Position numbers and translations under genes: made by a program. A stretch of DNA of 64,000 bases from Bacteroidales bacterium (lineage in GTDB: Bacteria > Bacteroidota > Bacteroidia > Bacteroidales > JAADJA01). The DNA lies in the NCBI GenBank assembly GCA_020052415.1, contig JAGVPB010000094.1:102881-166880 (forward strand), in the 5' to 3' direction. Numbering within the stretch: the first letter of the stretch is position 1; each line of letters opens with the position of its first letter. The notes beneath the pieces are model-generated. The model was not told where the DNA came from. It worked only from the letters and a program-made list of their open reading frames with translations, and ran no database searches. Shown in pieces: positions 1,781 to 53,500 of the stretch.

Positions 1781-2092
1781 ATGAAAACTAACAATTTATG
1801 TATTCAAATTCTGTATGTGTTTATATTTCTTTCAAGTCAAACCTCCGCCCAAAATTCAGTATTGTCAGAATGTAATTGGTACAAACTCGCGGTTCAACAG
1901 ACGGGTATTCACCAAATAACATATAGTGACCTCATGAGCTACGGGATCAATCCTTCACAACTTAACCCCAAACACATCAGGCTTTACGGAAATGGTAACG
2001 GAATGTTGCCTGAAGATAATAATTCATTCAGGTATGATGACTTACAGGAGAATGCCATTTTTGTCTATTCACTGAAAACTATGGCTTCATAA
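1781..2092 (+). pseudogene. truncated remnant of a PorU-family / C25 peptidase gene (signal peptide plus ~70 aa homologous segment only)
   Basis: MKTNNLCIQILYVFIFLSSQTSAQ is followed by NWYKLAVQQTGIHQITYSDLMSYGINPSQLNPKHIRLYGNGNGMLPEDNNSFRYDDLQENAIFV. This aligns with residues ~170-240 of both full-length PorU-like ORFs (e.g. IRVYGNGGGMLPENVNEFRYDDLQENSIYV). The ORF stops after 103 aa and its 3' end is overlapped by the convergent gene ending at 2065. Confidence 0.65.
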
Positions 2093-3579
2093 ACATAAAT
2101 TTCAGCATCTTTCCAGCCATCCCAACCAAGGCCAGCCTTGTCTCGGGAACAATGACCTAAAAATTCATTATGATTCCAGCCGGTTTCTGTTGCAACTTGT
2201 GGTAAAAAAGTGCCGCTGCGATTACCCTTTTTAATATAAATGCCGTTTTTGCCAAGTTCGATTTCATTAACAGATTCGATCTTTTTTAAGGGTGTCAGTA
2301 CGGATATTTCTATGATGATTTTCTGTAATTCACTTTTACTCACAGGTACGAAGCGTTTATCCTGAGTTGAAGATGCAATTGCCATTTGCTGCACAACTTC
2401 AAATAATGGTTCTTCCTGGTCGAACCTTCCGATACATCCCCGCAGTTCATCGTTCATTTTCAGGGTAACAAAAGCACCGCATTTTGTTTTTATTGCATCT
2501 GAAAAAGTTTCAGATTTAAGTTGAGCTAAATTATTTTCCGAAATATAGCTTTCAATGGTGATTCGCGCAATATTCAACAGGTCTTTTTTGTCAGTGTCAG
2601 TCAAATAAAAATCCGATTGTTCTTTTAGTTTCTTACTTACAACAATTGAATTATACCCTACCACCCTGTTTGAGTCACCATATTTTGTATCCCCTGAATT
2701 TTGATAAGTGATCAAATCGTACTTTAAATCATCAATATTAGTAGTCAGATATAACAAAGTAAGGATGGAAGTCCAGCCGCAAGCCCTTGTTGCAAGCCCC
2801 GGTACATTATTATTAATGCCGTCGCTAAGTTCTGATAAAAACATATCCGGATCGTTTGTAAGAATACTCTCAGCAGTTTTTTTGTCAATTATAACAGCAT
2901 TTTTATAACCAGGATAATGCGAAAAATCTGAACTGACAACAAATAAATTTGATTCATTAAAGTAGGGTTGTAACGCCACAGCTATTTTATGACAATCTTC
3001 CTGAGATTGGGTTCCGATTACTATTGGCACAATTCGAAATCCATCCTTCAATTTATATTGCAAAAAGGGTAATTGTACTTCAACGGAATGTTCCTGTTTG
3101 AAAGCCTGGGCATTAGAATTGAATATCCTGTTCTCTGAACTTAGTTTTTCTGCGAGTTCAGTATTTACTTTAACTCTTCCCAGGGGAGTAATAAAATCAC
3201 CGGAAGTAAATATTGAAGCTCCTTCAAAATACGAGGTGTGACTTGATGCAATTATAAAGACATTATTATAAAATTTTTCTGTATCAATTTGATTAAACCC
3301 TGAAGCTGCAACCCCTCCGGAATAAATATAACCTGCATGCGGTGAAATAACAGCCAGAACATTTTGGAATTTTCCAGGAACAGCATTCTTATAAAGATTC
3401 GCAAGTATTAGATTAAGTTCTTCTTTATCTGAAGGGTAAAACTGACCGGCAAAATCAGGCTGCTTGTCAAGCGGGTTATGGTTTTGAGCCTTATCATCAG
3501 TTTTATCCTGAGATGAACAACAGTTACAAAATAAAACAAATACAATAAGTAAATTGATGAAATAGTTTTTCTTATTCAT
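2065..3579 (-). CDS. AmmeMemoRadiSam system fusion protein: Memo-like (protein B) N-terminal half plus AMMECR1 (protein A) C-terminal half, with N-terminal signal peptide
   Basis: The Memo-like region carries GQFYPSD and VISPHAGYIYSGGVAASGF. The AMMECR1 region carries CGAFVTLKMNDELRGCIGRF and GTFLPQV. The N-terminus MNKKNYFINLLIVFVLFCNCCSSQ looks like a secretion or lipoprotein signal. Confidence 0.85.
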   Translation of the reverse strand: MNKKNYFINLLIVFVLFCNCCSSQDKTDDKAQNHNPLDKQPDFAGQFYPSDKEELNLILANLYKNAVPGKFQNVLAVISPHAGYIYSGGVAASGFNQIDTEKFYNNVFIIASSHTSYFEGASIFTSGDFITPLGRVKVNTELAEKLSSENRIFNSNAQAFKQEHSVEVQLPFLQYKLKDGFRIVPIVIGTQSQEDCHKIAVALQPYFNESNLFVVSSDFSHYPGYKNAVIIDKKTAESILTNDPDMFLSELSDGINNNVPGLATRACGWTSILTLLYLTTNIDDLKYDLITYQNSGDTKYGDSNRVVGYNSIVVSKKLKEQSDFYLTDTDKKDLLNIARITIESYISENNLAQLKSETFSDAIKTKCGAFVTLKMNDELRGCIGRFDQEEPLFEVVQQMAIASSTQDKRFVPVSKSELQKIIIEISVLTPLKKIESVNEIELGKNGIYIKKGNRSGTFLPQVATETGWNHNEFLGHCSRDKAGLGWDGWKDAEIYVYEAIVFSE

Positions 3580-3617
3580 TTTTATATAAATTTGAAAACC
3601 ATAAACAAATGTAAGGA

Positions 3618-5762
3618 ATGTTTATCAAACCTGCAAATAGAGTAAAATTTTCAATCTTCATCCTGGGATTTACATCAATAATTACCCAAATTATTGTGTT
3701 GAGGGAATTCCTGACTGTATTTAACGGAAATGAATTAATTACCGGGATGATTCTTGCAAATTGGATGCTGTTAACAGGATTGGGAGCCTTATTGGGAAGT
3801 TCATTAAAAAAATATTATATAAATTTCAATGCAATAAGTTACACACATATATTAATCGGGATATTACCTATCATTATTGCATTTTTAATTTATTATTTAA
3901 GAAATATACTTTTCCCGGCTGGTAAAATGATTAATCTTCTTGAAGTATTTTTTACTTCTTTAATTTTACTCGCTCCTTTTTGCATTCTTGCCGGAATATT
4001 ATATACTGTCTTTGCCCATCTCCTTTCATCTATTTTAAAATCGAATGTCATCAATAAAGTATATGCCATTGAAGCATTTGGTAGCATTGCAGGTGGAATT
4101 CTCTTTAATTTTTTACTGATATTTATTTTCAAAACTTTTTTTAGCCTGACACTTCTATTAATAATTAACTTTTCCACAGCAATAATACAGTTTTATATAA
4201 CCGATAAAAAAGCAATAGCTTACGTCACATCCCTCATAACCATTTTATTAACTCTCGTTATCATTACATCTGATTTAGAACGAAAAGCTGTTCAACTCCT
4301 CTATCCCAATCAGGAGCTGATCTATTTTAAAGACACGGCATACGGTAAGATAGTCGTTACAAAAACTGCAAATCAATACAACTTTTATGAAAACGGAAAT
4401 TTTCTATATACCAATAATAATAATATTCAGAATGAGGAGAACGTGCACTATGCTATGTCGCAGCATGCGCATCCTGAAAATGTTTTACTGATTTCAGGTG
4501 GCGCCTCAGGAATGCTGCACGAAATTTTGAAATATAATATAAGTTCCGTAGATTATATTGAGCAGAACAAAAACCTGATTGAAGTTGCTGAACTTTATAC
4601 AAGCAATATTATCCATCAGGATAATATTAACATTATTCATAATGATGCACGACTTTTTTTAAAAAATAAATCTGATAAAAAATATGATGTTGTATTGGTT
4701 AGCCTTCCTGATCCAACTAGTGTTCAAATCAACAGGTATTTCACGCTCGAATTTTTTGAGGAATTGAAAAAACACCTGAATGAATTTGCAATCGTTTCAA
4801 TCAGCCTTTCTTCAGTTTCAAATTATATGGGAGAGCAATCAATAAATATTAACTCATCAATATTCTCAACATTGAAACTTTTTTTCCAGAGTGTTACAAT
4901 AATTCCAGGTGGGAAAAATTATTTTATTGCATCCGACGGTCATCTTTCTACTGCAATAGCAAGCTTGATTGAAGAAAAAAAAATAAAAAACGAATATGTA
5001 AACTACTATTATCTTGAAGACACCCTAATCTCAAAAGAAAGTAAATTAATTGAGGATATTATTTCAGAGGATATTGTTATCAACAATGATTTTAAACCTG
5101 TGGTTTATTATTTTCAGTTGCATTATTGGTTAAGCTATTTTAAAGTTAATTATTTGATATTCTTCGCAATTCTTATAGTTTTTGCAGTTTTGATCATTGT
5201 CAGACTTAATTATCTTAATTTCGGACTTTTCGTTACAGGGTTTACGGCATCATCCCTGGAGCTTATTTTAATCATAGCTTTTCAGGTAATTTATGGATAC
5301 ACATATCAAATGATGGGGATAATCATTACTTTTTTCATGGCTGGTTTAATGTTTGGTTCATTGATTTTGGCCGAAAGAATAAAGGTTAGGATAAAGACCT
5401 ACAGTTTAATTCAATATACCATAGGCATTTTTTCAATATTAGTCACTTTAACTTTACTATTACTCAGGTCAAGTTCATTAAATGTTATTTTAGTTCATTT
5501 CATTTTTATTGTGCTAATTTCGGCTACAGGGATGCTGACCGGTCTGCAATATGCAATTTCATCAAAACTTAGAATTGTTTCTATATCCCAGATAGCAGCA
5601 ACCACTTATGCAACCGACTTATTAGGGTCGGCATTGGGGGCAGTACTCGTTACCTCCTTTATTATTCCTTTTTTTGGAATTATTAAAGTTACTCTTATTA
5701 TTGCCATACTAAATTTCATCACCGGTCTGTTTGTTTTAATAAAGTCAAAAAATAGTAATTGA
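3618..5762 (+). CDS. polytopic membrane protein with central spermidine-synthase-like (class I SAM-fold) domain
   Basis: By eye there are ~7 hydrophobic segments, then a soluble domain with LLISGGASGMLHEILKY and DVVLVSLPDPTS (spermidine synthase-like GGGxG / D..DP motifs), then ~6 more hydrophobic segments. Confidence 0.7.
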   Translation: MFIKPANRVKFSIFILGFTSIITQIIVLREFLTVFNGNELITGMILANWMLLTGLGALLGSSLKKYYINFNAISYTHILIGILPIIIAFLIYYLRNILFPAGKMINLLEVFFTSLILLAPFCILAGILYTVFAHLLSSILKSNVINKVYAIEAFGSIAGGILFNFLLIFIFKTFFSLTLLLIINFSTAIIQFYITDKKAIAYVTSLITILLTLVIITSDLERKAVQLLYPNQELIYFKDTAYGKIVVTKTANQYNFYENGNFLYTNNNNIQNEENVHYAMSQHAHPENVLLISGGASGMLHEILKYNISSVDYIEQNKNLIEVAELYTSNIIHQDNINIIHNDARLFLKNKSDKKYDVVLVSLPDPTSVQINRYFTLEFFEELKKHLNEFAIVSISLSSVSNYMGEQSININSSIFSTLKLFFQSVTIIPGGKNYFIASDGHLSTAIASLIEEKKIKNEYVNYYYLEDTLISKESKLIEDIISEDIVINNDFKPVVYYFQLHYWLSYFKVNYLIFFAILIVFAVLIIVRLNYLNFGLFVTGFTASSLELILIIAFQVIYGYTYQMMGIIITFFMAGLMFGSLILAERIKVRIKTYSLIQYTIGIFSILVTLTLLLLRSSSLNVILVHFIFIVLISATGMLTGLQYAISSKLRIVSISQIAATTYATDLLGSALGAVLVTSFIIPFFGIIKVTLIIAILNFITGLFVLIKSKNSN

Positions 5763-5789
5763 TCCTGAAATCAGGAATTGAAAACCAAC

Positions 5790-6956
5790 ATGGCTCAAAA
5801 ATTAATTAATAAAAGACGGTTTTTAAAAGAAGGCATCCTGGGAGCAGGGGCGTTAAGTTGCGGAATATTCAATATAAACCCGCTTAATGTGAAAGCCGGT
5901 GAATTATTAGGTTTGCAGGACAAGGAATCTGAAGGATTCAAAGAAAGCTGGAAAATAGAATCCAAATTTTATATCAACACTCCTAAGGGATTAAAATGTC
6001 AGCTTTGCCCGAATGAATGTAAAATGCTGCTTAATGAAACCGGCGATTGTAGAACCAAAGTAAATATTGAAAACAGGCTTATTTGCATTGCTTACGGTAA
6101 TCCATGCGCAATTCATATTGATCCAATAGAAAAAAAACCACTTTATCACTTTTATCCAGGATCCAGTGCCTTTTCGATTGCTACTGCAGGATGTAATCTG
6201 GCATGTCTGAATTGTCAAAACTGGGAGATTTCCCAATCCAGTCCTTACTCAACAAGAAATTATGATTTATCACCTGAAAAAGTCGTGGATGAGTGTGCAA
6301 AGAACAATTGTAAATCCATTGCCTATACATATTCTGATCCGGTGGCATTTTATGAATATACACTTGACACTGCAATCATTGCCCGTGAAAAAAATATTAA
6401 AAATGTAATTGTCAGCGCTGGCTATATTAATGAAAAGCCATTAAGAGAATGGTGCAAATATATTGATGGTGCACATATTGATTTGAAATCCTTTTCAAAT
6501 GAAATATATGAAATGCTGAATGCCGGGAAGCTAGAACCCGTTCTGAATACATTAAAAATAATGAAAGAAGAGGGTGTATGGCTCGAAATTATCAATCTGA
6601 TAATTCCCACTTGGACGGATGATCTGGATATGATTAAAAAAATGTGTGATTGGCTCGCTGAAAATGGTTTTGAATCAACACCCCTGCATTTTAGCAGATT
6701 TCAACCTCTTTATAAATTGACCAACTTACCTGCAACCCCGGTTTCTGTTTTAGACAAAGCAAGGGAAATTGCACTTTCCCGGGGAGTAAACTTTGTTTAT
6801 ATTGGTAATGTGCCTGGTACCTTGGCAGAAAATACTTTTTGTCCTGATTGTAAAAAAGTCGTCATTTCAAGGAAAGGCTTCAGAATACTTGAAAACAATT
6901 TAGATGCAGGGAAATGCAAATTCTGCAAAGCCGCAATACAAGGCATTTGGGATTGA
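5790..6956 (+). CDS. AmmeMemoRadiSam system radical SAM enzyme with twin-arginine (Tat)-like leader
   Basis: The CxxxCxxC motif is CNLACLNC. Extra Cys clusters are CQLCPNEC near the N-terminus and CPDC...CKFC near the C-terminus. The N-terminus is MAQKLINKRRFLKEGILGAGALSCGIF. The track begins at the alternative TTG at 5778, but the ATG at 5790 is preferred. Confidence 0.85.
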   Translation: MAQKLINKRRFLKEGILGAGALSCGIFNINPLNVKAGELLGLQDKESEGFKESWKIESKFYINTPKGLKCQLCPNECKMLLNETGDCRTKVNIENRLICIAYGNPCAIHIDPIEKKPLYHFYPGSSAFSIATAGCNLACLNCQNWEISQSSPYSTRNYDLSPEKVVDECAKNNCKSIAYTYSDPVAFYEYTLDTAIIAREKNIKNVIVSAGYINEKPLREWCKYIDGAHIDLKSFSNEIYEMLNAGKLEPVLNTLKIMKEEGVWLEIINLIIPTWTDDLDMIKKMCDWLAENGFESTPLHFSRFQPLYKLTNLPATPVSVLDKAREIALSRGVNFVYIGNVPGTLAENTFCPDCKKVVISRKGFRILENNLDAGKCKFCKAAIQGIWD

Positions 6957-7439
6957 TATAACTTCACCAGAATCGATCCTTTTTTTATTAAATAAACACA
7001 TCAAATAAATTAATGCTTATAGAGTTTAAATTTCCGTTAGAAGTAGTTTTTTAATTCAGATAAATATAACAATTTCACAGGATTTACGTAATAATGCTAT
7101 TAAATTGAGTTAAAAAATCAATAATTTAAGTTTAATAACTTTGATATTCATGTAATTGCTCAGACAGAATAAGAATTAATGTTCACTCCATACCATTTCT
7201 TTTCAGAATTTTCTATTCAGCGAGCAGGAATAGGAACAGAGTTATTGTAACAAGAATGCATTAATCATTTTGATTTTTTTTGAAATTTATAATTTTAGTT
7301 TTGTTGGAAAAAATTAAGTTTGTACACTCGCTTTTATTGTTTCTTATAACATTGATCAAATTATGGAATCTTAAATTGGAATTGCAACAAACTAAATTTC
7401 ATACTGTTATGAAATTTTATAAAAAATTTTTACAGAACA

Positions 7440-7470
7440 GGGTTACCTTTTATTGATTTACAGAATTAAC
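7440..7470 (+). promoter_or_regulatory. conserved motif GGGTTACC-N-CAGAATTAAC upstream of the sigma factor gene (candidate ECF-type promoter)
   Basis: GGGTTACCTTTTATTGATTTACAGAATTAAC ends 9 nt before the GTG start at 7480. It is 25/31 identical (ungapped, hand count) to 12864-12894. Confidence 0.5.
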
Positions 7471-7479
7471 TATTGAAAA

Positions 7480-8052
7480 GTGCAGGAATTTAAGGCAGAA
7501 GAAATATTAGAAGGCCTTCAGAATAGAGACACTGACGTTCTGGATTATATCTACAGAAACTTTTTCAATCAGATAAAAGTTTTTATTGTCCAAAATGATG
7601 GTACTGATGAAGATGCAAAGGATATATACCAGGATGCGATTTTAGTGATTTATCAAAAGACCCGAAAGGAAAACCTGATACTTAGTTGTTCTTTTAATAC
7701 TTATTTATATTCAGTTTGCAGATTACTGTGGCTAAAACAACTCGAATACAGGAAATTAAATAAAACTATAATTGAAGAATCTGCAAAGTTTATTGAATTG
7801 GATGACGATGTAGCTAACGTTTACAGGACAAATGAGCGATATATGTTATATCAGGATCATTTTAAAAGGCTTAGTTATAGTTGTCAGAAAATTTTAGAAC
7901 TTTTTCTTGCAAGAATTCAATTAAAAGAAATTGCAAGGATTCTAAGACTTAAAAGTGATGATTACGTGAAAAAGAGAAAACATCAATGCAAAGAAAAATT
8001 AATTGCAAGCATTAAAAATGACCCAAGGTTTAAAGAAATAATGAAACAATAA
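7480..8052 (+). CDS. RNA polymerase sigma factor, sigma-70 family, ECF-like (regions 2 and 4)
   Basis: The region-2-like segment is DAKDIYQDAILVIYQK...FNTYLYSVCRLLWLKQ. The region-4 HTH-like segment is LKEIARILRLKSDDYVKKRKHQCKEKL. The start is GTG, with an in-frame TGA two codons upstream. Confidence 0.75.
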   Translation: MQEFKAEEILEGLQNRDTDVLDYIYRNFFNQIKVFIVQNDGTDEDAKDIYQDAILVIYQKTRKENLILSCSFNTYLYSVCRLLWLKQLEYRKLNKTIIEESAKFIELDDDVANVYRTNERYMLYQDHFKRLSYSCQKILELFLARIQLKEIARILRLKSDDYVKKRKHQCKEKLIASIKNDPRFKEIMKQ

Positions 8053-8072
8053 AATTCTAAATTATCTTAAAA

Positions 8073-8813
8073 ATGAATAAATCCTATAATCAAATCGAAG
8101 ATTTTCTTGATGGCAATTTAATTGGAAAGGAATTAAGTATATTTATCAGCCAGAAAGAATTGGATAAGGAACTTGCAAAGGAAATTGAGCTTAGGTTCGA
8201 AGTAAATGAATTAATAAAGGATAATGGATTTTTCGAATTGAGAGAAAAACTCGAACTTCAGAGAAATGAATCCTATGTAAATAGTTCAATTATTAAGTTC
8301 AGAAAAGATTTATTTAAAACGTGGCATTTTGCCGCTGCTTCTTTTGCTCTTATCCTTGTTGTAGGCGGATTATGGTATATTTTATCGAACAAGCCCTATT
8401 CCACTGAAAAATTAGTTAGTAAATATTATAAACCTGCTCACCCTTTATTACAGGTTAGGTCAGCTGAAATTAAAAGTGATGATGCCCTTGCCACGGCATT
8501 CAAATATTATAAGGACAATGATTTCAACAGCGCTCTTAAATATTTTAATTCATTAGAAAATCAAATGACTGCAAAGTTTTATTCAGGAGTATGTTTTATT
8601 GAATTAGAACAATATGATGATGCTATTGAATCGTTCACAGCAGTAATTAATGACAATGACAATTTATTTGTAGAACAGGCAAACTGGTATTTAGGACTTA
8701 TCTATTTAATGGACAATCAAAAAAATAAGGCCATTGAACAGTTTGAAAAGATTTCTAAGGACGAAAATTACTATACTTCCCAGGCAAAAGAAATATTAAA
8801 ATATCTCAACTAA
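8073..8813 (+). CDS. anti-sigma-like single-pass membrane protein with extracytoplasmic TPR domain
   Basis: It lies 20 nt downstream of the sigma gene. The N-terminus IEDFLDGNL resembles anti-sigma N-termini. There is one TM segment (WHFAAASFALILVVGGLWYIL) and C-terminal TPR-like repeats (AFKYYKDNDFNSALKYF, AKFYSGVCFIELEQYDDAIESF, ANWYLGLIYLMDNQKNKAIEQF). Confidence 0.6.
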   Translation: MNKSYNQIEDFLDGNLIGKELSIFISQKELDKELAKEIELRFEVNELIKDNGFFELREKLELQRNESYVNSSIIKFRKDLFKTWHFAAASFALILVVGGLWYILSNKPYSTEKLVSKYYKPAHPLLQVRSAEIKSDDALATAFKYYKDNDFNSALKYFNSLENQMTAKFYSGVCFIELEQYDDAIESFTAVINDNDNLFVEQANWYLGLIYLMDNQKNKAIEQFEKISKDENYYTSQAKEILKYLN

Positions 8814-11800
8814 TATTTTTTCTTTTCCTGTATATTCTAAAGCCGATATAAACGGTTACTAAAATTAGAAGAAAAGCTACAGGATAAATTAAATACCTCC
8901 TGTATGAATAGGTGATAATGGTTGAATTATCACCTATTTGTACATAAGCAGCCCAAAAATATGGATGAGAATGTATTTGATCAGATTCAGTTATATAGGT
9001 CAGCTTTGAATTTCTAAGTGCATCATCAATATTCAATCCTTTATTCAGATTATGATAAAACTTTTCCATTATATTAGCACTGGAAATATCTTCTATTTCC
9101 CATAATGTCATGACAATAGAAGGAACACCTGCATACATAAATCCCCTGGCAAGACTCATGATTCCTTCTCCCTTACTGAACTTACCTATGCCTGTTTTAC
9201 ATGCACTTAAAACCACCAATTGGGCATTTAGGTTGAGATTGTAAATTTCATAATTATTCAGAAATCCATCCTCCGCCGAATCATTATTTAAAGTAAAAAC
9301 TAATTTTGATTTAAGTGGATCTTCATCATTTATTAAGGTATGCATTGCAAAATGAAGTATTTTAAACTTATTGGCATCGGATTTAACAAATTTCTCGGTA
9401 GCCTCCTCACCAGTCACAACTTTGCCATATACTTCTGAACTAATATTATTTACTTCATCAATTGAATAATCCAAAGGTGTAAGCATTGAGAATTTATCCC
9501 ATGAGACCTTATGTTCAGAGTTCAAATCTGCTAAGTTCAAATAGGTTGGGGCCATAGCCAACAACTTACCATTGTTTTTCTTCTTAACATTATGTTTAAA
9601 CATTATGGTCGCTGAATAAATGTAAGATACAGAATATTGATTAATTACATAGTTTAAATTTCTGAAATCCAATTTATCCGGGACATAATCATCCATTAAT
9701 AAGGCTTCGAAAGTTAAGTAACCCAATATACCATCCGGAACGATCAGCAAACTTTTATGATCCTTGGTAACTCCAATATTTTCCAATAATATTTTATAAA
9801 AATAATAACTGCTTTGAATAAAATCTTTATAAGTCTCCTTCGTAAAATCATGACCCGGAAAGACATTTATCAAAGACATAAGCCCGATAACTTTTTCAGA
9901 GATATTACCTTCAATTATTTGCTTTTTATAAATCACTGTGTCATGCGAAATTAAAAATGTTAACAAGGCTGAATCAACAATTTTATACTCTATAAATATT
10001 TCGTCCTTCTCAAGTCTTTGCTGAATATCCTTAACTTCGATAACATCCACACTATATTTAAGCTGGAAATAGTCGGGATAATTATTTTCAATATGATCAA
10101 TCAGGCTGTCGTATTTTAATGATTCTTCAAAGATTATTTTTTTTAATGAAAAAATTTTATTGCTGTCAGGCATGCTTTTTTGACTTTCGTCATATAGGTT
10201 GATTTTATATAATGAAATTTCTTTATTAAGGTTTTGTTCCTTTGCTTTTATATTTTCAGGAATTTTACCAATTTCGATAGCCTCAGATTGCCTTAACGAA
10301 GATAAAAGAATTGCAGCTTTACCTTTTTCCGAAAACTCAAAAGCTTTATATAAATAATCAATGTCGTTGGTCTTCTCATAAAGATCTGTTGCTACAAGTA
10401 CAATTGAATTATAAATATCATATACATAATCATTTATTAATAGCTTAGTATTTTCGTCCTTATATGAGGATAAAATTTTCTCAAACAAGATTATTGTTAA
10501 TTTATTTACCTCGAAGCTTGCTTGTAGATCTGCAATCTTATGACTGTATTTTCTATAGTAAAGATAAAGTGCATCAGATTTTTTATACAAGGCAATAAAA
10601 TTGTTAAACTCTAAGTCAATGTCATCAATTGATGGATTCGAATATAAATTGTAATCATTGAATTTTTTTATTGTAGAAACAATAGCTTTTTGATAAACTT
10701 CCAACGCCTGTTCAATTTTATCCATATCGTAATACAAATCGGCAAGGTTAATTAAAACCAAAGAAACTTCAGTATTTTTAAAACCAAAAATCTCCTTATA
10801 AATTCTTAATGCATCATTAAATAAATTAACAGCTTCATTATACTTCTTCTGATTTGTACAAAATTGTCCATAAGCACTATAACTTCCTGCTGTATGGTAA
10901 CTATCTTTACCGTATAATTTTTCTGAAATTGAAATGGCCTTTTTATAATTCTCTTCAGCCTTAGAAAAGTCATTCAAACTAAAATAACACCTTGCTGAAT
11001 TTCTTAAGGCTTTAATGCTATTTTCCGGACTAAAGTTGTCAATTAGACAATCATTATAAAATTCAATCGCTTTTTGCAGGTTACCCAGTTTTTCATAAAT
11101 AACCCCAAAATTGAGGTATAATTCATTTATAACTGAATTTGTTGTAATAGAATTCTTTCGATACAATTCCAAAGCCTGTTCCTGGTAAGTAAGAGCTTTA
11201 TTATAATCACCTAACAAAATAAATATCGAACCTATATTAAAATATATCGGGGCAAGGCCAAAGTATTCCAAACCGAAATTTGAAATATAAATTTCTTCTG
11301 CTTTACTCAGATAATTCAAAGATTCGTTTGACTCTCCCATTATATACAAAAACCTGCCATAATTAAGGTATCCGGAAGCGAGCTGCGGATCGTTCTTATT
11401 AAGAAACTTTTCTTTCAATAATACTGATTGATTGAAATATAATTTCGCACTGTCATACAATCCCATATTTGAATTAGCAATGCCTATGTTTAAATACAAT
11501 GAAGCAATTGTAATATCAGATGGATAAACTCTTGACCTCTCAATCGAAAGTGCTTTATTATAAAAACCAAGTGCAGCTTTATTATCCTTTAAGCTAATTT
11601 CAAGGTTTCCAAGTGATTTATAAACCAACGGTGTTAGGCTGTCATATTTTTCATTTTCACAATAATCACGAGCAAGTTTAAGGCATTTTAGTGAACTATC
11701 AATTTCGCCATATTTAAATAATAAATTCCCTTTAATAAAGAAAAACTCTGCATGTACTTTTTTTGAATCTATCCCTTTAGAATTTAGAAAAATTTCGGAA

Positions 11801-12132
11801 GACTTTAAATAATGGAATGCTGAATCAAAAATTCCTTTTGTTTGAAATGATTGTGAAATAAGGATTTGACATTTTAAATATTTCTCCCTTTGATCAATTT
11901 GTAAATATAACAGCGAAGCTTTTTTGTAAAAAAACAATGCCGAATCGAACTGTGCCTGCAAATATAGAGAATCAGCTTTATAAAAGTTTTGAAATGCTTT
12001 CGAGGTCAATTCGGAAGTATCAATTGATTGGCTGTTTGAATTGACAGATGATAAACCAGACACTTTATTATTGCAACAAAATACCGTTAATAAAGCTATT
12101 AATACAAATCCGTTTAAAAAAAATTTGTTCAT
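8806..12132 (-). CDS. exported TPR-repeat / CHAT-domain (caspase-fold protease) protein with C-terminal membrane anchor
   Basis: The N-terminal signal is MNKFFLNGFVLIALLTVFCCNN. About 600 aa of TPR-like repeats follow. The CHAT region contains ILHFAMHTLINDEDPLKSKLVF and LVVLSACKTGIG (His and Cys dyad context). The C-terminal TM is YPVAFLLILVTVYIGF, followed by RIYRKRKNIS. Confidence 0.8.
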   Translation of the reverse strand: MNKFFLNGFVLIALLTVFCCNNKVSGLSSVNSNSQSIDTSELTSKAFQNFYKADSLYLQAQFDSALFFYKKASLLYLQIDQREKYLKCQILISQSFQTKGIFDSAFHYLKSSEIFLNSKGIDSKKVHAEFFFIKGNLLFKYGEIDSSLKCLKLARDYCENEKYDSLTPLVYKSLGNLEISLKDNKAALGFYNKALSIERSRVYPSDITIASLYLNIGIANSNMGLYDSAKLYFNQSVLLKEKFLNKNDPQLASGYLNYGRFLYIMGESNESLNYLSKAEEIYISNFGLEYFGLAPIYFNIGSIFILLGDYNKALTYQEQALELYRKNSITTNSVINELYLNFGVIYEKLGNLQKAIEFYNDCLIDNFSPENSIKALRNSARCYFSLNDFSKAEENYKKAISISEKLYGKDSYHTAGSYSAYGQFCTNQKKYNEAVNLFNDALRIYKEIFGFKNTEVSLVLINLADLYYDMDKIEQALEVYQKAIVSTIKKFNDYNLYSNPSIDDIDLEFNNFIALYKKSDALYLYYRKYSHKIADLQASFEVNKLTIILFEKILSSYKDENTKLLINDYVYDIYNSIVLVATDLYEKTNDIDYLYKAFEFSEKGKAAILLSSLRQSEAIEIGKIPENIKAKEQNLNKEISLYKINLYDESQKSMPDSNKIFSLKKIIFEESLKYDSLIDHIENNYPDYFQLKYSVDVIEVKDIQQRLEKDEIFIEYKIVDSALLTFLISHDTVIYKKQIIEGNISEKVIGLMSLINVFPGHDFTKETYKDFIQSSYYFYKILLENIGVTKDHKSLLIVPDGILGYLTFEALLMDDYVPDKLDFRNLNYVINQYSVSYIYSATIMFKHNVKKKNNGKLLAMAPTYLNLADLNSEHKVSWDKFSMLTPLDYSIDEVNNISSEVYGKVVTGEEATEKFVKSDANKFKILHFAMHTLINDEDPLKSKLVFTLNNDSAEDGFLNNYEIYNLNLNAQLVVLSACKTGIGKFSKGEGIMSLARGFMYAGVPSIVMTLWEIEDISSANIMEKFYHNLNKGLNIDDALRNSKLTYITESDQIHSHPYFWAAYVQIGDNSTIITYSYRRYLIYPVAFLLILVTVYIGFRIYRKRKNIS

Positions 12133-12290
12133 GGAAGGAAATAACTCCTTAAATTAATAGAACGTTGCACCGATAAAGAATAAATCATTATTCCTGCATA
12201 TTTTAATTCAATATTCCATCGAACACAATCAAAACAATCTTACTTAATCGAAAAACTTCTCTGTCGGGTCAATATTAGCAAGCGAAATAA

Positions 12291-12325
12291 AAAAGGGAAA
12301 TAATCTGAGCGAAAATTTCCCTTTT
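12291..12325 (-). terminator. rho-independent terminator downstream of the small secreted-peptide gene
   Basis: A perfect 11-bp stem pairs AAAAGGGAAAT (12291-12301) with ATTTCCCTTTT (12315-12325). On the minus strand it is followed by a T-rich run. Confidence 0.6.
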
Positions 12326-12498
12326 AATAAATCAAATCTCTTCAAGTACCAGAAAATTTTACCCTTATCCCTATATAAAACAAGAGACAATAATTCAACC
12401 ATTAGCAAATCTATTTATAATTTGCAACGTACGAAACTTATCTCTACAAATTGAAATAAGCTGTAAAATCTTTACAAAATCTCTCTGATAATAAAACT

Positions 12499-12681
12499 TT
12501 ATTCCGGAACGTAAACTCCATTAACATCCGCAGCACTATTTCCCTGAATATCATTACCTGGAGAAGTAGATGTACCTGAATTACCGTTGGCATCAGTACC
12601 AGTTTCATCAGAGAATACATTTAAAGTAAAAAAAACAAAGAACATAGCCATAATAATGGCAACAAAACCTCTCTTTTTCAT
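12499..12681 (-). CDS. small secreted protein (60 aa), Gly/Asn/Ser/Thr-rich mature part
   Basis: MKKRGFVAIIMAMFFVFFTLNVFS is a signal-like segment followed by a low-complexity DETGTDANGNSGTSTSPGNDIQGNSAADVNG tail. The gene has its own TAnnTTTG element (12725-12732, minus) and terminator (12291-12325). Confidence 0.5.
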   Translation of the reverse strand: MKKRGFVAIIMAMFFVFFTLNVFSDETGTDANGNSGTSTSPGNDIQGNSAADVNGVYVPE

Positions 12682-12724
12682 AAACCCTCAATTTTAAAAT
12701 TAATACAATTTTCGAATGACGATT

Positions 12725-12732
12725 CAAAAATA
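12725..12732 (-). promoter_or_regulatory. Bacteroidota -7 promoter element (TATTTTTG) for the small secreted-peptide gene
   Basis: The minus strand reads TATTTTTG 44 nt upstream of the ATG at 12681. Confidence 0.3.
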
Positions 12733-12863
12733 GTACTATTTTTCAATTTGGGACTTTTTTTTTCAATTTTTCACATATTTTATTAAATACATTATATTAA
12801 ATGCTGGTTATCAGTAAATTAATAATATTTTTTATTTTTTTAGTAAAAATAATTACAAAACCA

Positions 12864-12894
12864 GGGTAACCTTTTTTTCGATTTCAGAATTAAC
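12864..12894 (+). promoter_or_regulatory. second copy of the conserved GGGTWACC-N-CAGAATTAAC motif, upstream of the histidine kinase-like gene
   Basis: GGGTAACCTTTTTTTCGATTTCAGAATTAAC lies 44 nt upstream of the ATG at 12938. The upstream flank TACAAAACCA also resembles TACAGAACA at the first site. Confidence 0.5.
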
Positions 12895-12937
12895 AAATGG
12901 AGTGTAGTGCGTATTTCTTGACCTTTAATTTGCAGAA

Positions 12938-13729
12938 ATGAATAGAAAGTTGACTTATAAAGAGTTAGAGGAAAAGGTATCCGAAATGGAAAGTAAACTT
13001 ACCTTGAAGGATAAAGAAGTACATAAGTTAAAGTCATCCTTTCTATCGAATATTTCACACGAAATTCGAACCCCGATGAATGTGATAGTTGGATTCTCCT
13101 ATCTGCTAAATGATCCACATTATGACCAAAATCAAAAGGAATTCTTTGTTGGAGAGATAAATAAAAACAGTAAAGAATTACTCAGGTTAATTGATAACAT
13201 TATTTTAACTGCCAAGATTGAGACGGATGATATTAAGCTCGAAATGAATATTTGTGATATTCAAACCTTGATGGAGGAACTTTATACTCAAATTCGAAAA
13301 TTTGTTAATTCTAATTTAAACAATAAAGTTGAATTAAAATTCATTCAAAATACTTTAAAATCGAATTATCAGATTTTCACAGACAGGGAGAAGTTTATGC
13401 GCGCGATGTTTAATATGATAGAAAACGCAATTAAATTTTCAAAAAATAATTCTGTCGAATTTGGTTACAATATAATTAATGACAAATTTGTTGATTTCTT
13501 CATTAAAGATAATGGAATTGGTACCAATGGTGAAATCAATTTCTCCGGCCGGAAATTAAGTCTTATTGAACCGGATGATAATTCAGATTTTTATGAAACC
13601 AGGATTGGACTTACTATATCTGATAAATTGATCAGGTTGCTTGGCGGAAAGTTAAAAATAAAATCCTCAATTGGAAAAGGATCCTCTTTTAATTTTACAA
13701 TACCTCTGTTAGTAGAAAAGCCTGTATAA
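12938..13729 (+). CDS. soluble histidine kinase-like protein (coiled coil + HisKA + HATPase_c), no sensor or TM domain
   Basis: The H-box is SFLSNISHEIRTPMN, the N-box-like segment is MIENAIKFS, the G1-like segment is IKDNGIG and the G2-like segment is GLTISDKLIRLLGG. No hydrophobic segment is present and no response regulator gene lies nearby. Confidence 0.7.
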   Translation: MNRKLTYKELEEKVSEMESKLTLKDKEVHKLKSSFLSNISHEIRTPMNVIVGFSYLLNDPHYDQNQKEFFVGEINKNSKELLRLIDNIILTAKIETDDIKLEMNICDIQTLMEELYTQIRKFVNSNLNNKVELKFIQNTLKSNYQIFTDREKFMRAMFNMIENAIKFSKNNSVEFGYNIINDKFVDFFIKDNGIGTNGEINFSGRKLSLIEPDDNSDFYETRIGLTISDKLIRLLGGKLKIKSSIGKGSSFNFTIPLLVEKPV

Positions 13730-13750
13730 ACGATACAGGCTAAGAATTAA

Positions 13751-13778
13751 GCCATCCAATATTGGGTGGCTTTTTTTT
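13751..13778 (+). terminator. rho-independent terminator after the histidine kinase-like gene
   Basis: The hairpin GCCATCCAAT/ATTGGGTGGC is followed directly by T8. Confidence 0.7.
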
Positions 13779-50550: not shown

Positions 50551-53500
50551 TTATTTCAGTATCACCAGTTTGCTTGTTTCATCAGCTATCTGCCCATCAT
50601 AGCTTTTCACTTTCACCCGGTAAATATACATTCCCTGCTTCAGTTTGCTGCCGCTTTCATCAGTTCCCCGCCAGTTGGGAGAAATGTATTTGTAGCCACC
50701 CGAAAAATAATCATCCTTTAATGTGGTCACAAGCTGACCTTCAAGCGAGTAAATGTTGATGGTAATTTCAAGAGGCTGATCATCCTGATTATGCTCAAAA
50801 GCAAATTTTGTAGTTTCTTTAAAGGGATTCGGGTAATTCATAAGATGGTCAAGCGCCATTTCGGCTGATTCTGCAACTATGAAATCTGTATAAACTGTAG
50901 TTGAATTATTATTGATGTCCCAAACCCTCAGTGAAAGATCGTGGTGGCCGTTACTTAATCTGTAAAATGGATAAGTAACTGTACCGTTAGTAAAATCATC
51001 GAGATCGGATTGATAATAATCGTTCAGAATAAAATTGCCTGTATTATCAAGAGTTGCCTGAATATCATGACCGATTCCGCTTCCAACAGTATTGATCCCG
51101 CTTTCGTCACTGATTTTAGCAAAAAGCAGGGGGTTTTCATCGGTCAAACCTCCGGCAATGAAATGCTCATCGTTCATAAAGAGCTGCACCTCCGGCCCTT
51201 CGGTATCCACTGCCATATTTTGCTCATAACCTCCCACAACGATATCCATGAAGTAACCTGCAGCATCTTCGGCGTCATTTTTTGCATAGTAACTTATTTT
51301 CCCGAAACCATAATCATAGGCAATATCTTTGGGTACAATAAATGAAAACGACCATTCACCGTTGCTCACAGTGGCCATACCCTTATAAAGCGGATTTTTC
51401 TGAATGTAAAAATTGGTTTGTATGCTGGCCGGGTCATTACCGAGTGTGGTATATCTCGATGGTTTGTCATAAACTGTCGGGAAAAGCACTCCATTAAATC
51501 CCGTTAGCTTATTTCCAAGGTAATCCTGCATCTCACCCGAAACACTTACATTCGATAATGCAGTAAGGGTATCGGTGGGTTCGATGATGGATATATCATT
51601 AATTTTCAGAGTAACCACATCTTGTTTCGGAAAAGCAAATTTAAGGGCGGGATCACCAAGCAAAACAAATTTTCGGGTATTCTCCGTGCTTCCGGAAGCG
51701 TTTTTTGAAAGGCGTATCACATCTCCCATACGCAAATATTCACCTTCTGATTTTTGCAAAGTGTAGGTGAAGAAATTTTTGTTCAGAGTGGCATTGGCGC
51801 CAGCATAAGTTGCACGGGTTGTACTGTATAAGGAAATACCTCCGCCGTGCGAATTCAGAAAAATCAATTCTCCGGCGGATGTTCTTTCCGGATCATCAAA
51901 GCGGCTGAACTCACAGGTAGCAGTAAGAAATACAGGCAAATTATCAAAATTGTCCCAGCTATTGATATCAGCCACTGTTAATATGCGCTCATGGGCAAGT
52001 CCCAGCTCGCCGCCATGTCCGACGTAATTGACAATTAACGCTCCTCTTTCAACACGGTTAGTGATATCCTGTGTTACCTTAGGATATAACTCCCCGCTTG
52101 GCGTTGATTCCTGAATATAGGAATCAAGATAAATTTTATCAATGTTGATGTTTTTATTCGTGGTATCAATTTGATGCGCCAGTTTTTCAGTATCATTGAA
52201 ATGCAGGTTACTGTCCTCATCGTCGGCAATGAGGCATACAACGTTACGCCAGTCACCCATTACATCGTCGGTGTTAACAGCATAATGAATGACCTTATCA
52301 ACAGCTTCGGTTGCCTGTTGAAGTGTTCTTACAACAAAGCGTCCGACACCGATATCCAGTAAATTATCCCCGTCGAGGTTTGCATAAAAATCATCGGTTA
52401 TATAAGAACCGATGGGATTAAGCGATTCCATTGATTCCCATGTCGGCACAAAATTGGAGTTGTTTGCAATCCTGTCTTTATAATCAAACGACGCATCACC
52501 AAAAAGCAGAAGATATTTTGGTTCATTACCTGAAGATGCATTATCGTAAAGCATTTTAACAAAATCACGAATAGCCGAAATATCAGCGGCCCCGCTCGAG
52601 AATTCATTATAAATATCCTGCAATTGAACTACTTCAACATTCATATTGTCCTGAATCCTGTGGTGTTCGGCAAGGCGATTCGCTTCATTAATAAATTCAG
52701 GCGGGGTAACAATGATCAGTTCAATATCGCTGAGATCATGAAGGTTTTGATTGTCAATTTTGCCCACGATCTCAACGGCGAACAATGAAGCACCATCAAA
52801 CGCTATGAATTCCTGCAACTCATTTGATTCGGTCCTGAAAACGAGTTGATTTAAACCGGCCGTTGATTCAACCTTTTCGGGATTGATGCGGTCCGTGATA
52901 TTCCAAATTGAAACATCAGTAGTGATTTTTGTTAAAGTATATTCAGCAACACATTCCTGGTTTGCAGTTCTTAAATCGCGAAAGATCATCTGTCCGCCTT
53001 CAAAACTGAGATTTCGGACATAATTGATCGTAAAATAATTCAAAAATCCCAGGGATGATGACATTGGCTTGTTGTATTCAATCATGATGTTCAAATCCTT
53101 GCTGTACACCATAAGAGTGGTCGAATCAAATTTGGTTTTTGCATAGTCCTGATTATTATCATTGTTATAGTTTGACCTTGCACATAGAAGGTTCAGAATA
53201 TTTGTACTGTTCACAAAAACATCAAATGTGCTTTCAATATCTGATTTTGCCGCTACATCTACATCAATATGAACAGGCGATGACAAATCAAGATTTGGAA
53301 TACTGATGCCCTGAATTAAAGTTGTTGTCAGATCGAAGGTTTCGCCGTACCACATCCTTCCCGTACTGATCAGGTTGTTTTCTTCAAGTTCATGGTGGTA
53401 TGCATCGTTGTATTTCGAACAGAACAATGTCGGAGTAAGTTGGGAAGACGGCTGATTCTGTATTCGTTTTCCCAATCCCGCATCGGCTGTGATAAAATAA

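Follow-up and report, generated by a model that had tools for sequence, protein, structure and literature searches.

An extracytoplasmic function-type sigma factor, an anti-sigma-like membrane protein and an exported TPR-CHAT protein in a conserved, probable cell-envelope signaling module of Bacteroidota

The 64,000-nucleotide stretch of a Bacteroidales genome analyzed here (contig JAGVPB010000094.1 of assembly GCA_020052415.1, positions 102,881 to 166,880; hereafter the window) contains three adjoining genes, which encode an extracytoplasmic function (ECF)-type sigma factor, a protein with a single transmembrane (TM) helix and a tetratricopeptide repeat (TPR) domain, and a large exported protein combining TPRs with a CHAT domain. 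Together with a small secreted peptide present in the clade of the window, these constitute a conserved and probable cell-envelope signaling module of Bacteroidota, in which the TM-TPR protein is the anti-sigma-like partner. The public annotation labels the trio only as 'sigma-70 family', 'hypothetical protein' and 'TPR repeat protein'. An original prediction, made by a model from the letters of the window, had described a sigma/anti-sigma-like operon convergent with a membrane-anchored TPR-CHAT protease, and the open reading frame (ORF) list of the window contains the three genes at exactly the coordinates it gave, with an overlap of 8 nt (8806-8813) between the 3' ends of the TM-TPR and CHAT genes. 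The features of the locus are the following.

7440-7470, plus strand: bipartite ECF-type promoter-like motif GGGTTACCTTTT-N11-GAATTAAC, ending 9 nt before the GTG codon of the sigma gene.
7480-8052, plus strand: ECF-like sigma gene, GTG start, 190 residues.
8073-8813, plus strand: TM-TPR anti-sigma-like gene, 246 residues, on the same strand as the sigma gene and 20 nt 3' of it.
Residues 1-66 of the TM-TPR protein: cytoplasmic N-terminal module of four helices, with an IEDFLDGNL motif and without zinc ligands.
8322-8387: TM helix of the TM-TPR protein, about residues 84-105.
8457-8459: invariant R129 of the TM-TPR protein, in a disordered periplasmic linker.
8478-8807: TPR domain of the TM-TPR protein, residues 136-245.
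8806-12132, minus strand: TPR-CHAT gene, 1108 residues, convergent with the TM-TPR gene.
N-terminus of the CHAT protein: export signal with a possible lipobox (...TVFCC).
About residues 40-620 of the CHAT protein: TPRs.
8929-9765: CHAT domain (Pfam PF12770), residues 790-1068.
9340-9342 and 9199-9201: H931 and C978 of the CHAT domain, respectively.
8839-8895: C-terminal TM helix of the CHAT protein, about residues 1080-1098, followed by the tail RIYRKRKNIS.
12291-12325, minus strand: intrinsic-terminator hairpin and T-run, between the small ORF and the CHAT gene.
12499-12681, minus strand: small secreted peptide gene, 60 residues, with a signal peptide, a stretch rich in G, S, T and N, and the C-terminus ...AADVNGVYVPE.
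12864-12894, plus strand: second copy of the motif, GGGTAACCTTTT-N11-GAATTAAC, ending 43 nt before the ATG of the histidine kinase gene.
12938-13729, plus strand: orphan soluble histidine kinase, 263 residues (coiled coil, HisKA, HATPase_c; cluster 13), syntenic in 12 loci.

The product of the first gene consists of a sigma2 domain, a disordered linker (residues 100-115) and a sigma4 domain, and in having only these two domains within 190 residues it agrees with the definition of ECF (group IV) sigma factors, which comprise sigma2 and sigma4 only in some 170-200 residues. It remains below the curated sequence models (Pfam Sigma70_r2 and r4_2, TIGR02937), as Sigma70_r2 scores 20.2 bits for a cut-off of 24 and TIGR02937 38.9 for a cut-off of 42.9, and the Pfam scan of the protein returned no sigma r4 match; PF04542 is present in many of its relatives. 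The AlphaFold (AF2) model (predicted local distance difference test, pLDDT, 82.8) has two helical domains flanking the disordered segment 100-115, and Foldseek searches with this model returned almost exclusively ECF sigma structures, matched over both domains with probability 1.0, among them SigE/RseA, AlgU/MucA, SigW/RsiW, BldN/RsbN and Mycobacterium tuberculosis SigL and SigH. At least the thirty top matches are ECF sigmas aligned over 160-190 columns. In a profile search of the PDB the sigma family has SigW as its best match (E=6e-4), while a PDB search with the single sequence was uninformative (E ~0.1). The family is conserved in metagenome-assembled genomes of Bacteroidales, with 58-88% identity across 120 clusters among the matches listed. 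As judged from the predicted structure, the window protein is a divergent member with an ECF fold that lies below the curated sequence cut-offs; the ECF-like character originally proposed is thus borne out by the fold and falls short by the Pfam and TIGR02937 thresholds.

The predicted structure of the 246-residue protein comprises four N-terminal helices, a long TM helix (73-105), a short helix close to the membrane, a disordered segment (pLDDT<50 for 126-134) and a TPR domain (136-245) of three to four repeats. According to Foldseek the latter resembles periplasmic or peptide-binding TPRs, YbgF being the closest (TM-score 0.80), followed by BamD, Hop TPR2A and PcrH/IpgC; the search with the full model returned TPR domains only. 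Within the N-terminal module the family has an IExYLDGxL signature, which we take to be that familiar from helix 1 of anti-sigma factors, and PF13490 (zf-HC2, an anti-sigma N-terminal family) matches this module in 11 of 28 diverse relatives, with a best E value of 1.7e-4. A homologue of the gene lies directly 3' of the sigma gene in 74 out of 80 loci (see below), and a gene at this position encoding a single TM helix and an extracytoplasmic domain has the characteristics of a class I anti-sigma factor. The assignment of the 246-residue protein as anti-sigma-like, with a degenerate N-terminal module, gains support from this gene order and from the zf-HC2 matches in the relatives. In an alignment of 74 members of the family only R129 and W205 are fully conserved, and among close relatives the most conserved block is the TM helix with the juxtamembrane stretch, the start of the TM helix carrying a conserved WxxAAAS motif. 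The family is large, since this marker alone yields 268 clusters at 50% identity with E<=1e-30. Some relatives of 390-510 residues (P0254, P0303, P0333, P0351, P0384) have two to four tandem cytoplasmic modules of about 60 residues, of the form IExYLxGxL...LRxxL, before the TM helix, and repeated anti-sigma-like modules within one chain are unusual. Fusions of sigma and anti-sigma, which would have linked the two proteins directly, were looked for and rejected, as the TM-TPR relatives of 400-510 residues carry two to four copies of the cytoplasmic module and no fused sigma.

The architecture proposed for the third protein was recovered in full. The CHAT domain (PF12770) is matched at residues 790-1068 with E=9e-56 and 189.8 bits (cut-off 24), covering positions 22-289 of the 289 of the profile, and TPR_12 is matched in eight stretches (E=4.5e-64). 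The HFAMHT and SACKTG segments are found at residues 927-932 and 976-981, and the catalytic residues they contain, H931 and C978, are invariant in 52 out of 52 full-length relatives, so that this protein has both the domain score and the intact His-Cys dyad of a CHAT peptidase, and the original prediction withstands its own condition on the dyad. Topology signals were scored by hydropathy only. On this basis, a hydrophobic N-terminal export signal is present in 51 of 53 relatives, many of which have a lipobox-like ...SC after it, and 47 of the 53 end in a TM helix with a K/R-rich tail (+3 to +8). Because of this recurrence we consider the periplasmic location anticipated for the window protein to be probably a conserved property of the family: according to the positive-inside rule, the TPR-CHAT body would be periplasmic and tethered to the inner membrane. 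When the profile of the CHAT region was compared with the PDB the best match was a chain of 991 residues (8rot_B/8rw5; E=1.6e-3), followed by Csx29 chains (E ~0.4), and in the alignment H931 and C978 correspond to H862 and to the stretch with the catalytic Cys in 8rot_B. We take this chain to be the anti-sigma factor DdvA on account of its length and of the number of the aligned histidine, both as described in PMC11506125.

The linkage of these genes was investigated from both sides. A scan anchored on the alignment of the sigma family, with one genome per GTDB species, yielded 80 loci, of which 54 contain a CHAT gene; among the 48 that are well flanked (6 kb or more upstream, 5 kb or more downstream) the proportion is 39/48. 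The median gap to CHAT is 1.1 kb and the maximum 5.8 kb. In the reciprocal scan of metagenomes, anchored on the C-terminal 335 residues of CHAT, 29 loci had at least 3 kb on both sides, and a sigma-family or ECF-like gene was found in 20 of these (10 strong matches at E<=1e-20 and 10 weaker ones), a TM-TPR gene in 17, and neither of the two in 6. Conservation of the CHAT gene beside the pair, on which the original prediction had staked itself beforehand, is therefore observed from either anchor. Four arrangements occur: CHAT convergent and downstream of the pair, the arrangement of the window (20 loci, in several of which the 3' ends overlap or nearly abut), divergent and upstream (31), co-directional upstream (4) and co-directional downstream (3). 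Since these span, by record titles, Bacteroidales, Lentimicrobiaceae, Saprospiraceae, Porifericola, Cyclobacteriaceae and Flavobacteriaceae, the proximity of CHAT to the pair has been kept through rearrangement; other neighboring genes are common to 10-13 loci only.

Variations of this layout were also noted. In L120 (6006-13314) a plus-strand CHAT gene is followed by the genes of an ECF sigma (180 residues) and of a zinc anti-sigma (232 residues), which has HLLQCNSC, a TM helix and, on the periplasmic side, a domain other than TPRs. A second CHAT gene is convergent with these, shares 7 nt with the anti-sigma gene at the 3' end of the latter, and encodes a product without a C-terminal TM helix; similar loci with two CHAT genes are L117, L118, L121 and L138. 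Judging from its gene order, L120 has the layout of the window with an anti-sigma lacking TPRs, and the association of CHAT appears to extend beyond the TM-TPR family. The whole module (sigma, TM-TPR, CHAT and kinase) is duplicated in tandem on contig CAYQWA010000004.1 (L005 and L010, ~12 kb apart), three CHAT paralogues surround one sigma/TM-TPR pair in a Flavobacteriaceae locus (L079:6566-17970), and two sigma/TM-TPR pairs stand in tandem in L020 and L037.

A further link between these genes is a shared promoter-like motif. The pattern GGGTWACCTTTT-N11-GAATTAAC has exactly two matches in the window, for 0.03 expected by chance, one before the sigma gene and one before the histidine kinase gene. 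ECF-dependent promoters have an (A/T)AC-type -35 element, 16 nt, and then a -10 element; in the motif before the sigma gene we propose that TTAC(C) may be the -35 and GAATTA the -10 element, which are 16 nt apart. Each of the 14 window-type loci has the motif before its sigma gene, and nine besides the window have it before the kinase orthologue as well (10 including the window), which makes the orphan kinase a candidate member of the regulon in this clade. In Lentimicrobium-type loci a variant, GTATTACCTTTT-N9-10-GGAT(A/T)AA, is found before the sigma gene in 38 loci and, on the opposite strand, before the first gene of a divergent operon ending in CHAT in 25 loci, and high-scoring matches are nearly confined there to the upstream regions of sigma and of this cargo/CHAT operon. 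The motif is likewise located before the cargo/CHAT operon in L008 and L009. In sum, 52 loci have a conserved GG(G)TWACC-N16-GAAT(T/A)AA ahead of the sigma gene, and neighboring targets are preceded by it too. As the variant shifts with the sigma clade, jointly at the sigma and at the target promoters, the bipartite motif is probably the promoter type of the adjacent sigma itself. In L060, L063 and L069 (Porifericola/Cyclobacteriaceae; ~11330-13770) the variant before the sigma gene is GGTAACCTT...GCAAC(T/C)AA, a second copy stands before the genes of a secreted protein of 235-240 residues and a putative lipoprotein of 545 residues, located 3' of the TM-TPR gene, and the CHAT gene lies immediately upstream of the sigma gene without a motif. 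Because of the position of this second copy, the candidate regulon appears to differ by clade. The -35-like core (GGTWACC) is nearly palindromic, and each site (12863-12871, 7439-7447) thus offers a half-site on the opposite strand. The minus-strand GGTTACC half-site at 12863-12871 faces the small ORF and CHAT and is followed by no matching -10-like element, and the other GGTWACC sites in the window (26241, 55864) stand without the rest of the motif.

The linkage of CHAT to the pair persists in those clades where the CHAT gene has no sigma-type motif, that is in window-type loci and in L060, L063 and L069, which argues for a role of CHAT in the pathway beyond that of a mere output, as far as gene order can tell.

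Upstream of CHAT lies another conserved element. The 60-residue ORF of the window is a called gene in the public annotation and has homologues at the same place in six relatives; in window-type loci it is preceded by a conserved TAttTTTG box, which presumably corresponds to the housekeeping -7 element of Bacteroidetes. The terminator hairpin which follows it has a free energy of -16.6 kcal/mol (z = -4.2, none of 200 shuffles being as stable), and five relatives have a hairpin and T-run of differing sequence at the same place. The C-terminus of the peptide belongs to a motif, G-x-S-x-GDV(N/G)G(T/V)(F/Y)VP, which is carried by 35 loci, in every case immediately before CHAT and on its strand, with a single stray match in 2.66 M residues of six-frame translation, and which recurs in three CHAT-anchored metagenome loci. 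It occurs in three formats: at the C-terminus of the ~60-residue peptides of window type, followed by one acidic residue; as a single copy in a 410-residue protein with CarboxypepD_reg-like, dockerin-like and type IX secretion system (T9SS) C-terminal sorting domains (cluster 3, 36 loci); and as three to seven tandem repeats of 31 residues (L028, L034, L038, L039). The secreted protein of L034 (8614-9501, minus strand; 295 residues), which has kin in L028, L038 and L039, consists of a CarboxypepD_reg-like head and seven near-identical 31-residue repeats, FQLLVTNVPTMGGSSAGDVNGTFVPSTRYxx, and by its sequence looks like a multi-copy precursor of the motif that ends the 60-residue peptide of the window.

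The closest known system is that of DdvA and DdvS of Myxococcus xanthus, in which a transmembrane anti-sigma with a periplasmic TPR-CHAT region controls its ECF sigma (PMC11506125, PMC6061681). Common to both systems are an ECF sigma, a single-pass anti-sigma (anti-sigma-like in the present case) and a TPR-CHAT region whose His-Cys dyad faces, or here is predicted to face, the periplasm, and the model put forward for DdvA, namely self-cleavage by CHAT in the juxtamembrane linker, within a dimer and before RseP acts (PMC11506125), corresponds to the order of cuts proposed here. Whereas DdvA is one polypeptide, the CHAT protease here is made separately, carries an export signal and a C-terminal TM anchor of its own and, in the window, is encoded convergently to the anti-sigma gene, and the anti-sigma has a small TPR domain of its own and lacks the CHCC zinc site of DdvA. 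Also, DdvA-like proteins have been reported only in Myxococcota and one Comamonas species (PMC11506125), while the split family is Bacteroidota-wide, and the DdvS regulon is a CBASS/CRISPR defense island (PMC11506125, PMC6061681; CBASS, cyclic oligonucleotide-based antiphage signaling system), whereas no defense genes adjoin the window locus, where the candidate targets are the sigma operon and the histidine kinase. In Craspase, a type III-E Cas7-11 effector with the TPR-CHAT protease Csx29 cleaves Csx30, the inhibitor of an ECF-like CASP-sigma (PMC10028731); as is proposed here, an ECF-type sigma is controlled there through cleavage of its inhibitor by a TPR-CHAT protease, and the sigma autoregulates genes of its locus. 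That system is, however, cytoplasmic, activated by RNA via the Cas effector and without membrane components; the window CHAT protein is exported by hydropathy, its profile has only the weak similarity to Csx29 given above (E ~0.4), no cas genes flank the locus, and genes for Cas7-11 (gRAMP), Csx30 and Csx31 are absent among the window ORFs at 2-16.5 kb, so that the module does not belong to type III-E.

Concerning anti-sigma proteolysis in general, the module resembles RseA and RsiW in having a single-pass anti-sigma-like protein with a putative sigma-binding domain in the cytoplasm, for which an extracytoplasmic site-1 cut is expected before the intramembrane one. In the known cases the site-1 cut is made by serine proteases or metalloproteases (DegS, PrsW), whereas the candidate enzyme here is a clan-CD cysteine protease encoded beside the pair. 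The classical RseA/DegS/RseP and RsiW/PrsW/RasP cascades are summarized in PMC10028731. An association of caspase-superfamily peptidases, TPR proteins and ECF sigmas had already been noted for the EACC2-caspase conflict systems, which include an ECF sigma and a TPR (DUF1822) protein (PMC8195603); compared by description, those are predicted intracellular counter-invader systems with other domains (EACC2, TRADD-N). Among the papers searched, those retrieved for a periplasmic TPR-CHAT associated with a sigma in Bacteroidetes concern DdvA or CRISPR only, none describes the present module, and the main text of the ECF classification paper does not mention CHAT. The module is thus a split and uncharacterized variant, DdvA/DdvS being its closest known counterpart, but by its divided architecture and the lack of a defense regulon it stands outside the DdvA family.

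Considering these data, we infer a pathway in which, at rest, the sigma would be kept at the membrane by the anti-sigma. A cue from the periplasm, for which the peptide or protein bearing the GDVNG motif is a possibility, would be read by the TPR arrays and activate the CHAT protease, which would clip the anti-sigma in the juxtamembrane linker, the invariant Arg129 being a candidate P1 residue for a clan-CD protease; this cut would license intramembrane proteolysis, which would set the sigma free. Transcription of the sigma operon and, in the clade of the window, of the orphan histidine kinase would follow from GGGTWACC-N16-GAATTAA promoters, and in other clades the sigma would also transcribe the operon of the motif-bearing T9SS protein and CHAT. 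Overall, the parts that a single chain unites in the Myxococcus DdvA, namely anti-sigma domain, TM helix and TPR-CHAT, would here be divided between two proteins, and the protease would act in trans. The arguments for this split scheme are the linkage seen from both anchors, the shared compartment, the intact dyad, the fact that DdvA is the nearest solved relative, the invariant Arg in the linker and the persistence of linkage where CHAT has no motif. That the components of the module are functionally coupled in some way we regard as very likely; CHAT is a plausible candidate for the site-1 protease, and to the specific scheme, a trans-acting CHAT that cleaves the anti-sigma to free the sigma, we give tentative credence, slightly short of an even judgment.

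A number of observations weigh against this scheme. Both the binding of the sigma by the anti-sigma and the cleavage of the latter by CHAT are steps that we infer, and the N-terminus of the window TM-TPR protein matches no Pfam family, contains neither His nor Cys in its first 80 residues and therefore no HxxxCxxC zinc motif, and in a PDB profile search retrieved no anti-sigma chain, only spurious matches to protein A and Nif11. Well-flanked sigma loci without a CHAT gene within 10 kb amount to 9/48, and their TM-TPR proteins, where included in the 74-sequence alignment, retain R129, for which reason this residue may be structural. A specific pairing between the TM helices of the anti-sigma and CHAT was considered and is not indicated, since the sequence of the CHAT TM helix is not conserved among relatives. 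In the window no sigma-type motif was found upstream of CHAT or of the small ORF, and the small ORF and then a terminator precede CHAT; the bipartite motif, in turn, could be an operator for another regulator. The interpretation given in the original prediction is supported in part. As to the more general claims, the mechanistic novelty first ascribed to the locus was overstated, as DdvA (PMC11506125) and Csx29/Csx30 (PMC10028731) are precedents, and the TPR-TPR docking then envisaged is not required, because the zinc anti-sigma of L120, which has no TPR domain, shares the same convergent overlap with CHAT.

The split scheme has also to be set against other explanations, two of which overlap with it biologically. 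The cargo/CHAT operon lies behind the sigma-type motif in 25 loci, a classic signature of a regulon member which counts against a purely upstream role, and CHAT could for this reason also be an output: the pair would sense an envelope cue in the conventional manner, and TPR-CHAT with the T9SS cargo would be the main regulon product, acting as an envelope or surface effector for the processing or degradation of extracytoplasmic proteins. The motif shared by the sigma gene and the cargo/CHAT operon, also seen in L008 and L009, the typical location of ECF regulons beside the gene of their sigma, and the 9/48 loci without adjacent CHAT agree with this. Yet the linkage persists where CHAT has no such motif, both in L060, L063 and L069 and in window-type loci, in which the small ORF is flanked by a housekeeping-type TAnnTTTG box and a terminator; besides, the tight convergent overlap of the CHAT and anti-sigma genes recurs in unrelated variants, and among solved structures the one nearest to the CHAT domain belongs to the sensor part of an anti-sigma factor. 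CHAT as output alone seems to us unlikely, though by no means far-fetched. At the other extreme, CHAT might be a mere neighbor, adjacent by descent. Indeed, the synteny of window-type loci extends further (clusters 10, 12, 13 and 16), and adjacency within one clade proves little, but here it survives four arrangements across several families and is seen from both anchors, while other neighbors are shared by 10-13 loci only, and an absence of any functional link is extremely improbable.

A different possibility is that the real substrate, pseudo-substrate or ligand of TPR-CHAT is the GDVNGxFVP product itself, in a loop based on a secreted peptide or protein. CHAT would process this product or be held by it, and the TPR domain of the anti-sigma or the TPR array of CHAT would sense it, resulting in self-sensing or cell-to-cell signaling via an ECF sigma. 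The motif is confined to a position immediately upstream of CHAT in its 35 loci and in the three additional metagenome loci, with the one stray match mentioned; its three formats include the seven tandem repeats of L034 and the window-type peptides with a free C-terminus after one acidic residue, the anti-sigma TPR resembles peptide-binding TPRs (Hop TPR2A, PcrH/IpgC, YbgF), and the sigma-type motif of the cargo operon would provide positive feedback. Against these points, the motif is confined to two clades and other CHAT-linked lineages lack it, it may belong to a degenerate dockerin-like calcium-binding segment, the Arg that follows it in cargo proteins is absent from window-type peptides, and binding and cleavage of the product are hypothetical; we judge this loop distinctly unlikely. 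The bolder combination, a pathway widespread in Bacteroidota in which a Sec- or T9SS-exported GDVNGxFVP product, the 60-residue peptide in this genome, is processed by or gates the membrane-anchored CHAT, which in turn cuts the TPR anti-sigma at the invariant Arg and ends in the ECF sigma, is in our opinion quite improbable; if true, it would be a self-sensing or cell-to-cell circuit with a caspase-fold enzyme as signal-dependent site-1 protease in trans.

The surroundings of the module were analyzed as well. In the window its neighbors are a radical-SAM protein, a spermidine-synthase-like protein, the histidine kinase and valS, and the upstream ones, listed here, keep their order (window 2068-6956) in 10-13 related loci, which is a synteny of the lineage unrelated to the module.

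2068-3579, minus strand: protein of ~500 residues, 60% identical to cluster 16.
3618-5762: multi-TM spermidine-synthase-like protein, 714 residues.
5778-6956: radical-SAM protein.

The intergenic region upstream of the sigma gene (6957-7479) is unusually long (523 nt) and AT-rich (GC 0.233), the promoter-like motif occupying its last 40 nt, and Rfam gave no match at the gathering score within it or elsewhere in 1-20 kb of the window. Bacteroidota promoters are of other types than the sigma-70 consensus, and a scan for sigma-70-type promoter and terminator consensus sequences found 36 sites for 35.7 expected. With a GC content of ~0.30, compared with 0.378 for the whole window, the trio is indeed AT-rich, as had been remarked, but the foreign origin proposed on these grounds was rejected: the deficit recurs in nine relatives, where the trio lies 0.3-5 points under its flanks (2-5 in 8/9) and tracks a host GC from 0.24 to 0.50, and the flanking genes are syntenic. 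The low GC content is therefore most probably a property of the gene family. An anti-phage defense system was similarly considered and rejected, as PADLOC returned no defense-family match at the locus apart from a generic TPR model and neither cas nor CBASS genes were found nearby. Elsewhere in the window, a segment at 50566-50847 (minus strand) weakly resembles the cluster-3 cargo protein in the T9SS C-terminal sorting region of the latter (30% identity over 94 residues, E=1.5e-7), which suggests a T9SS-secreted protein.

To our knowledge, the inactivation of anti-sigma factors in Bacteroidetes is mostly unknown. ECF sigmas are especially numerous in these organisms, with ~22 per genome on average (PMC7826278), and the module offers a concrete site-1 candidate from a catalytic class new to this role, namely a cysteine protease of caspase fold whose gene adjoins that of its presumed substrate, with Arg129 as candidate cleavage residue and with predicted target promoters usable as reporters. 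It would tie DdvA, the single characterized TPR-CHAT anti-sigma, to a much larger split family, and because protease and substrate are separate proteins, the model of a CHAT cut followed by RseP becomes testable in trans, which is impossible with the fused DdvA. Finally, the secreted proteins carrying the GDVNGxFVP motif and their link to the T9SS suggest a signal input not described before.

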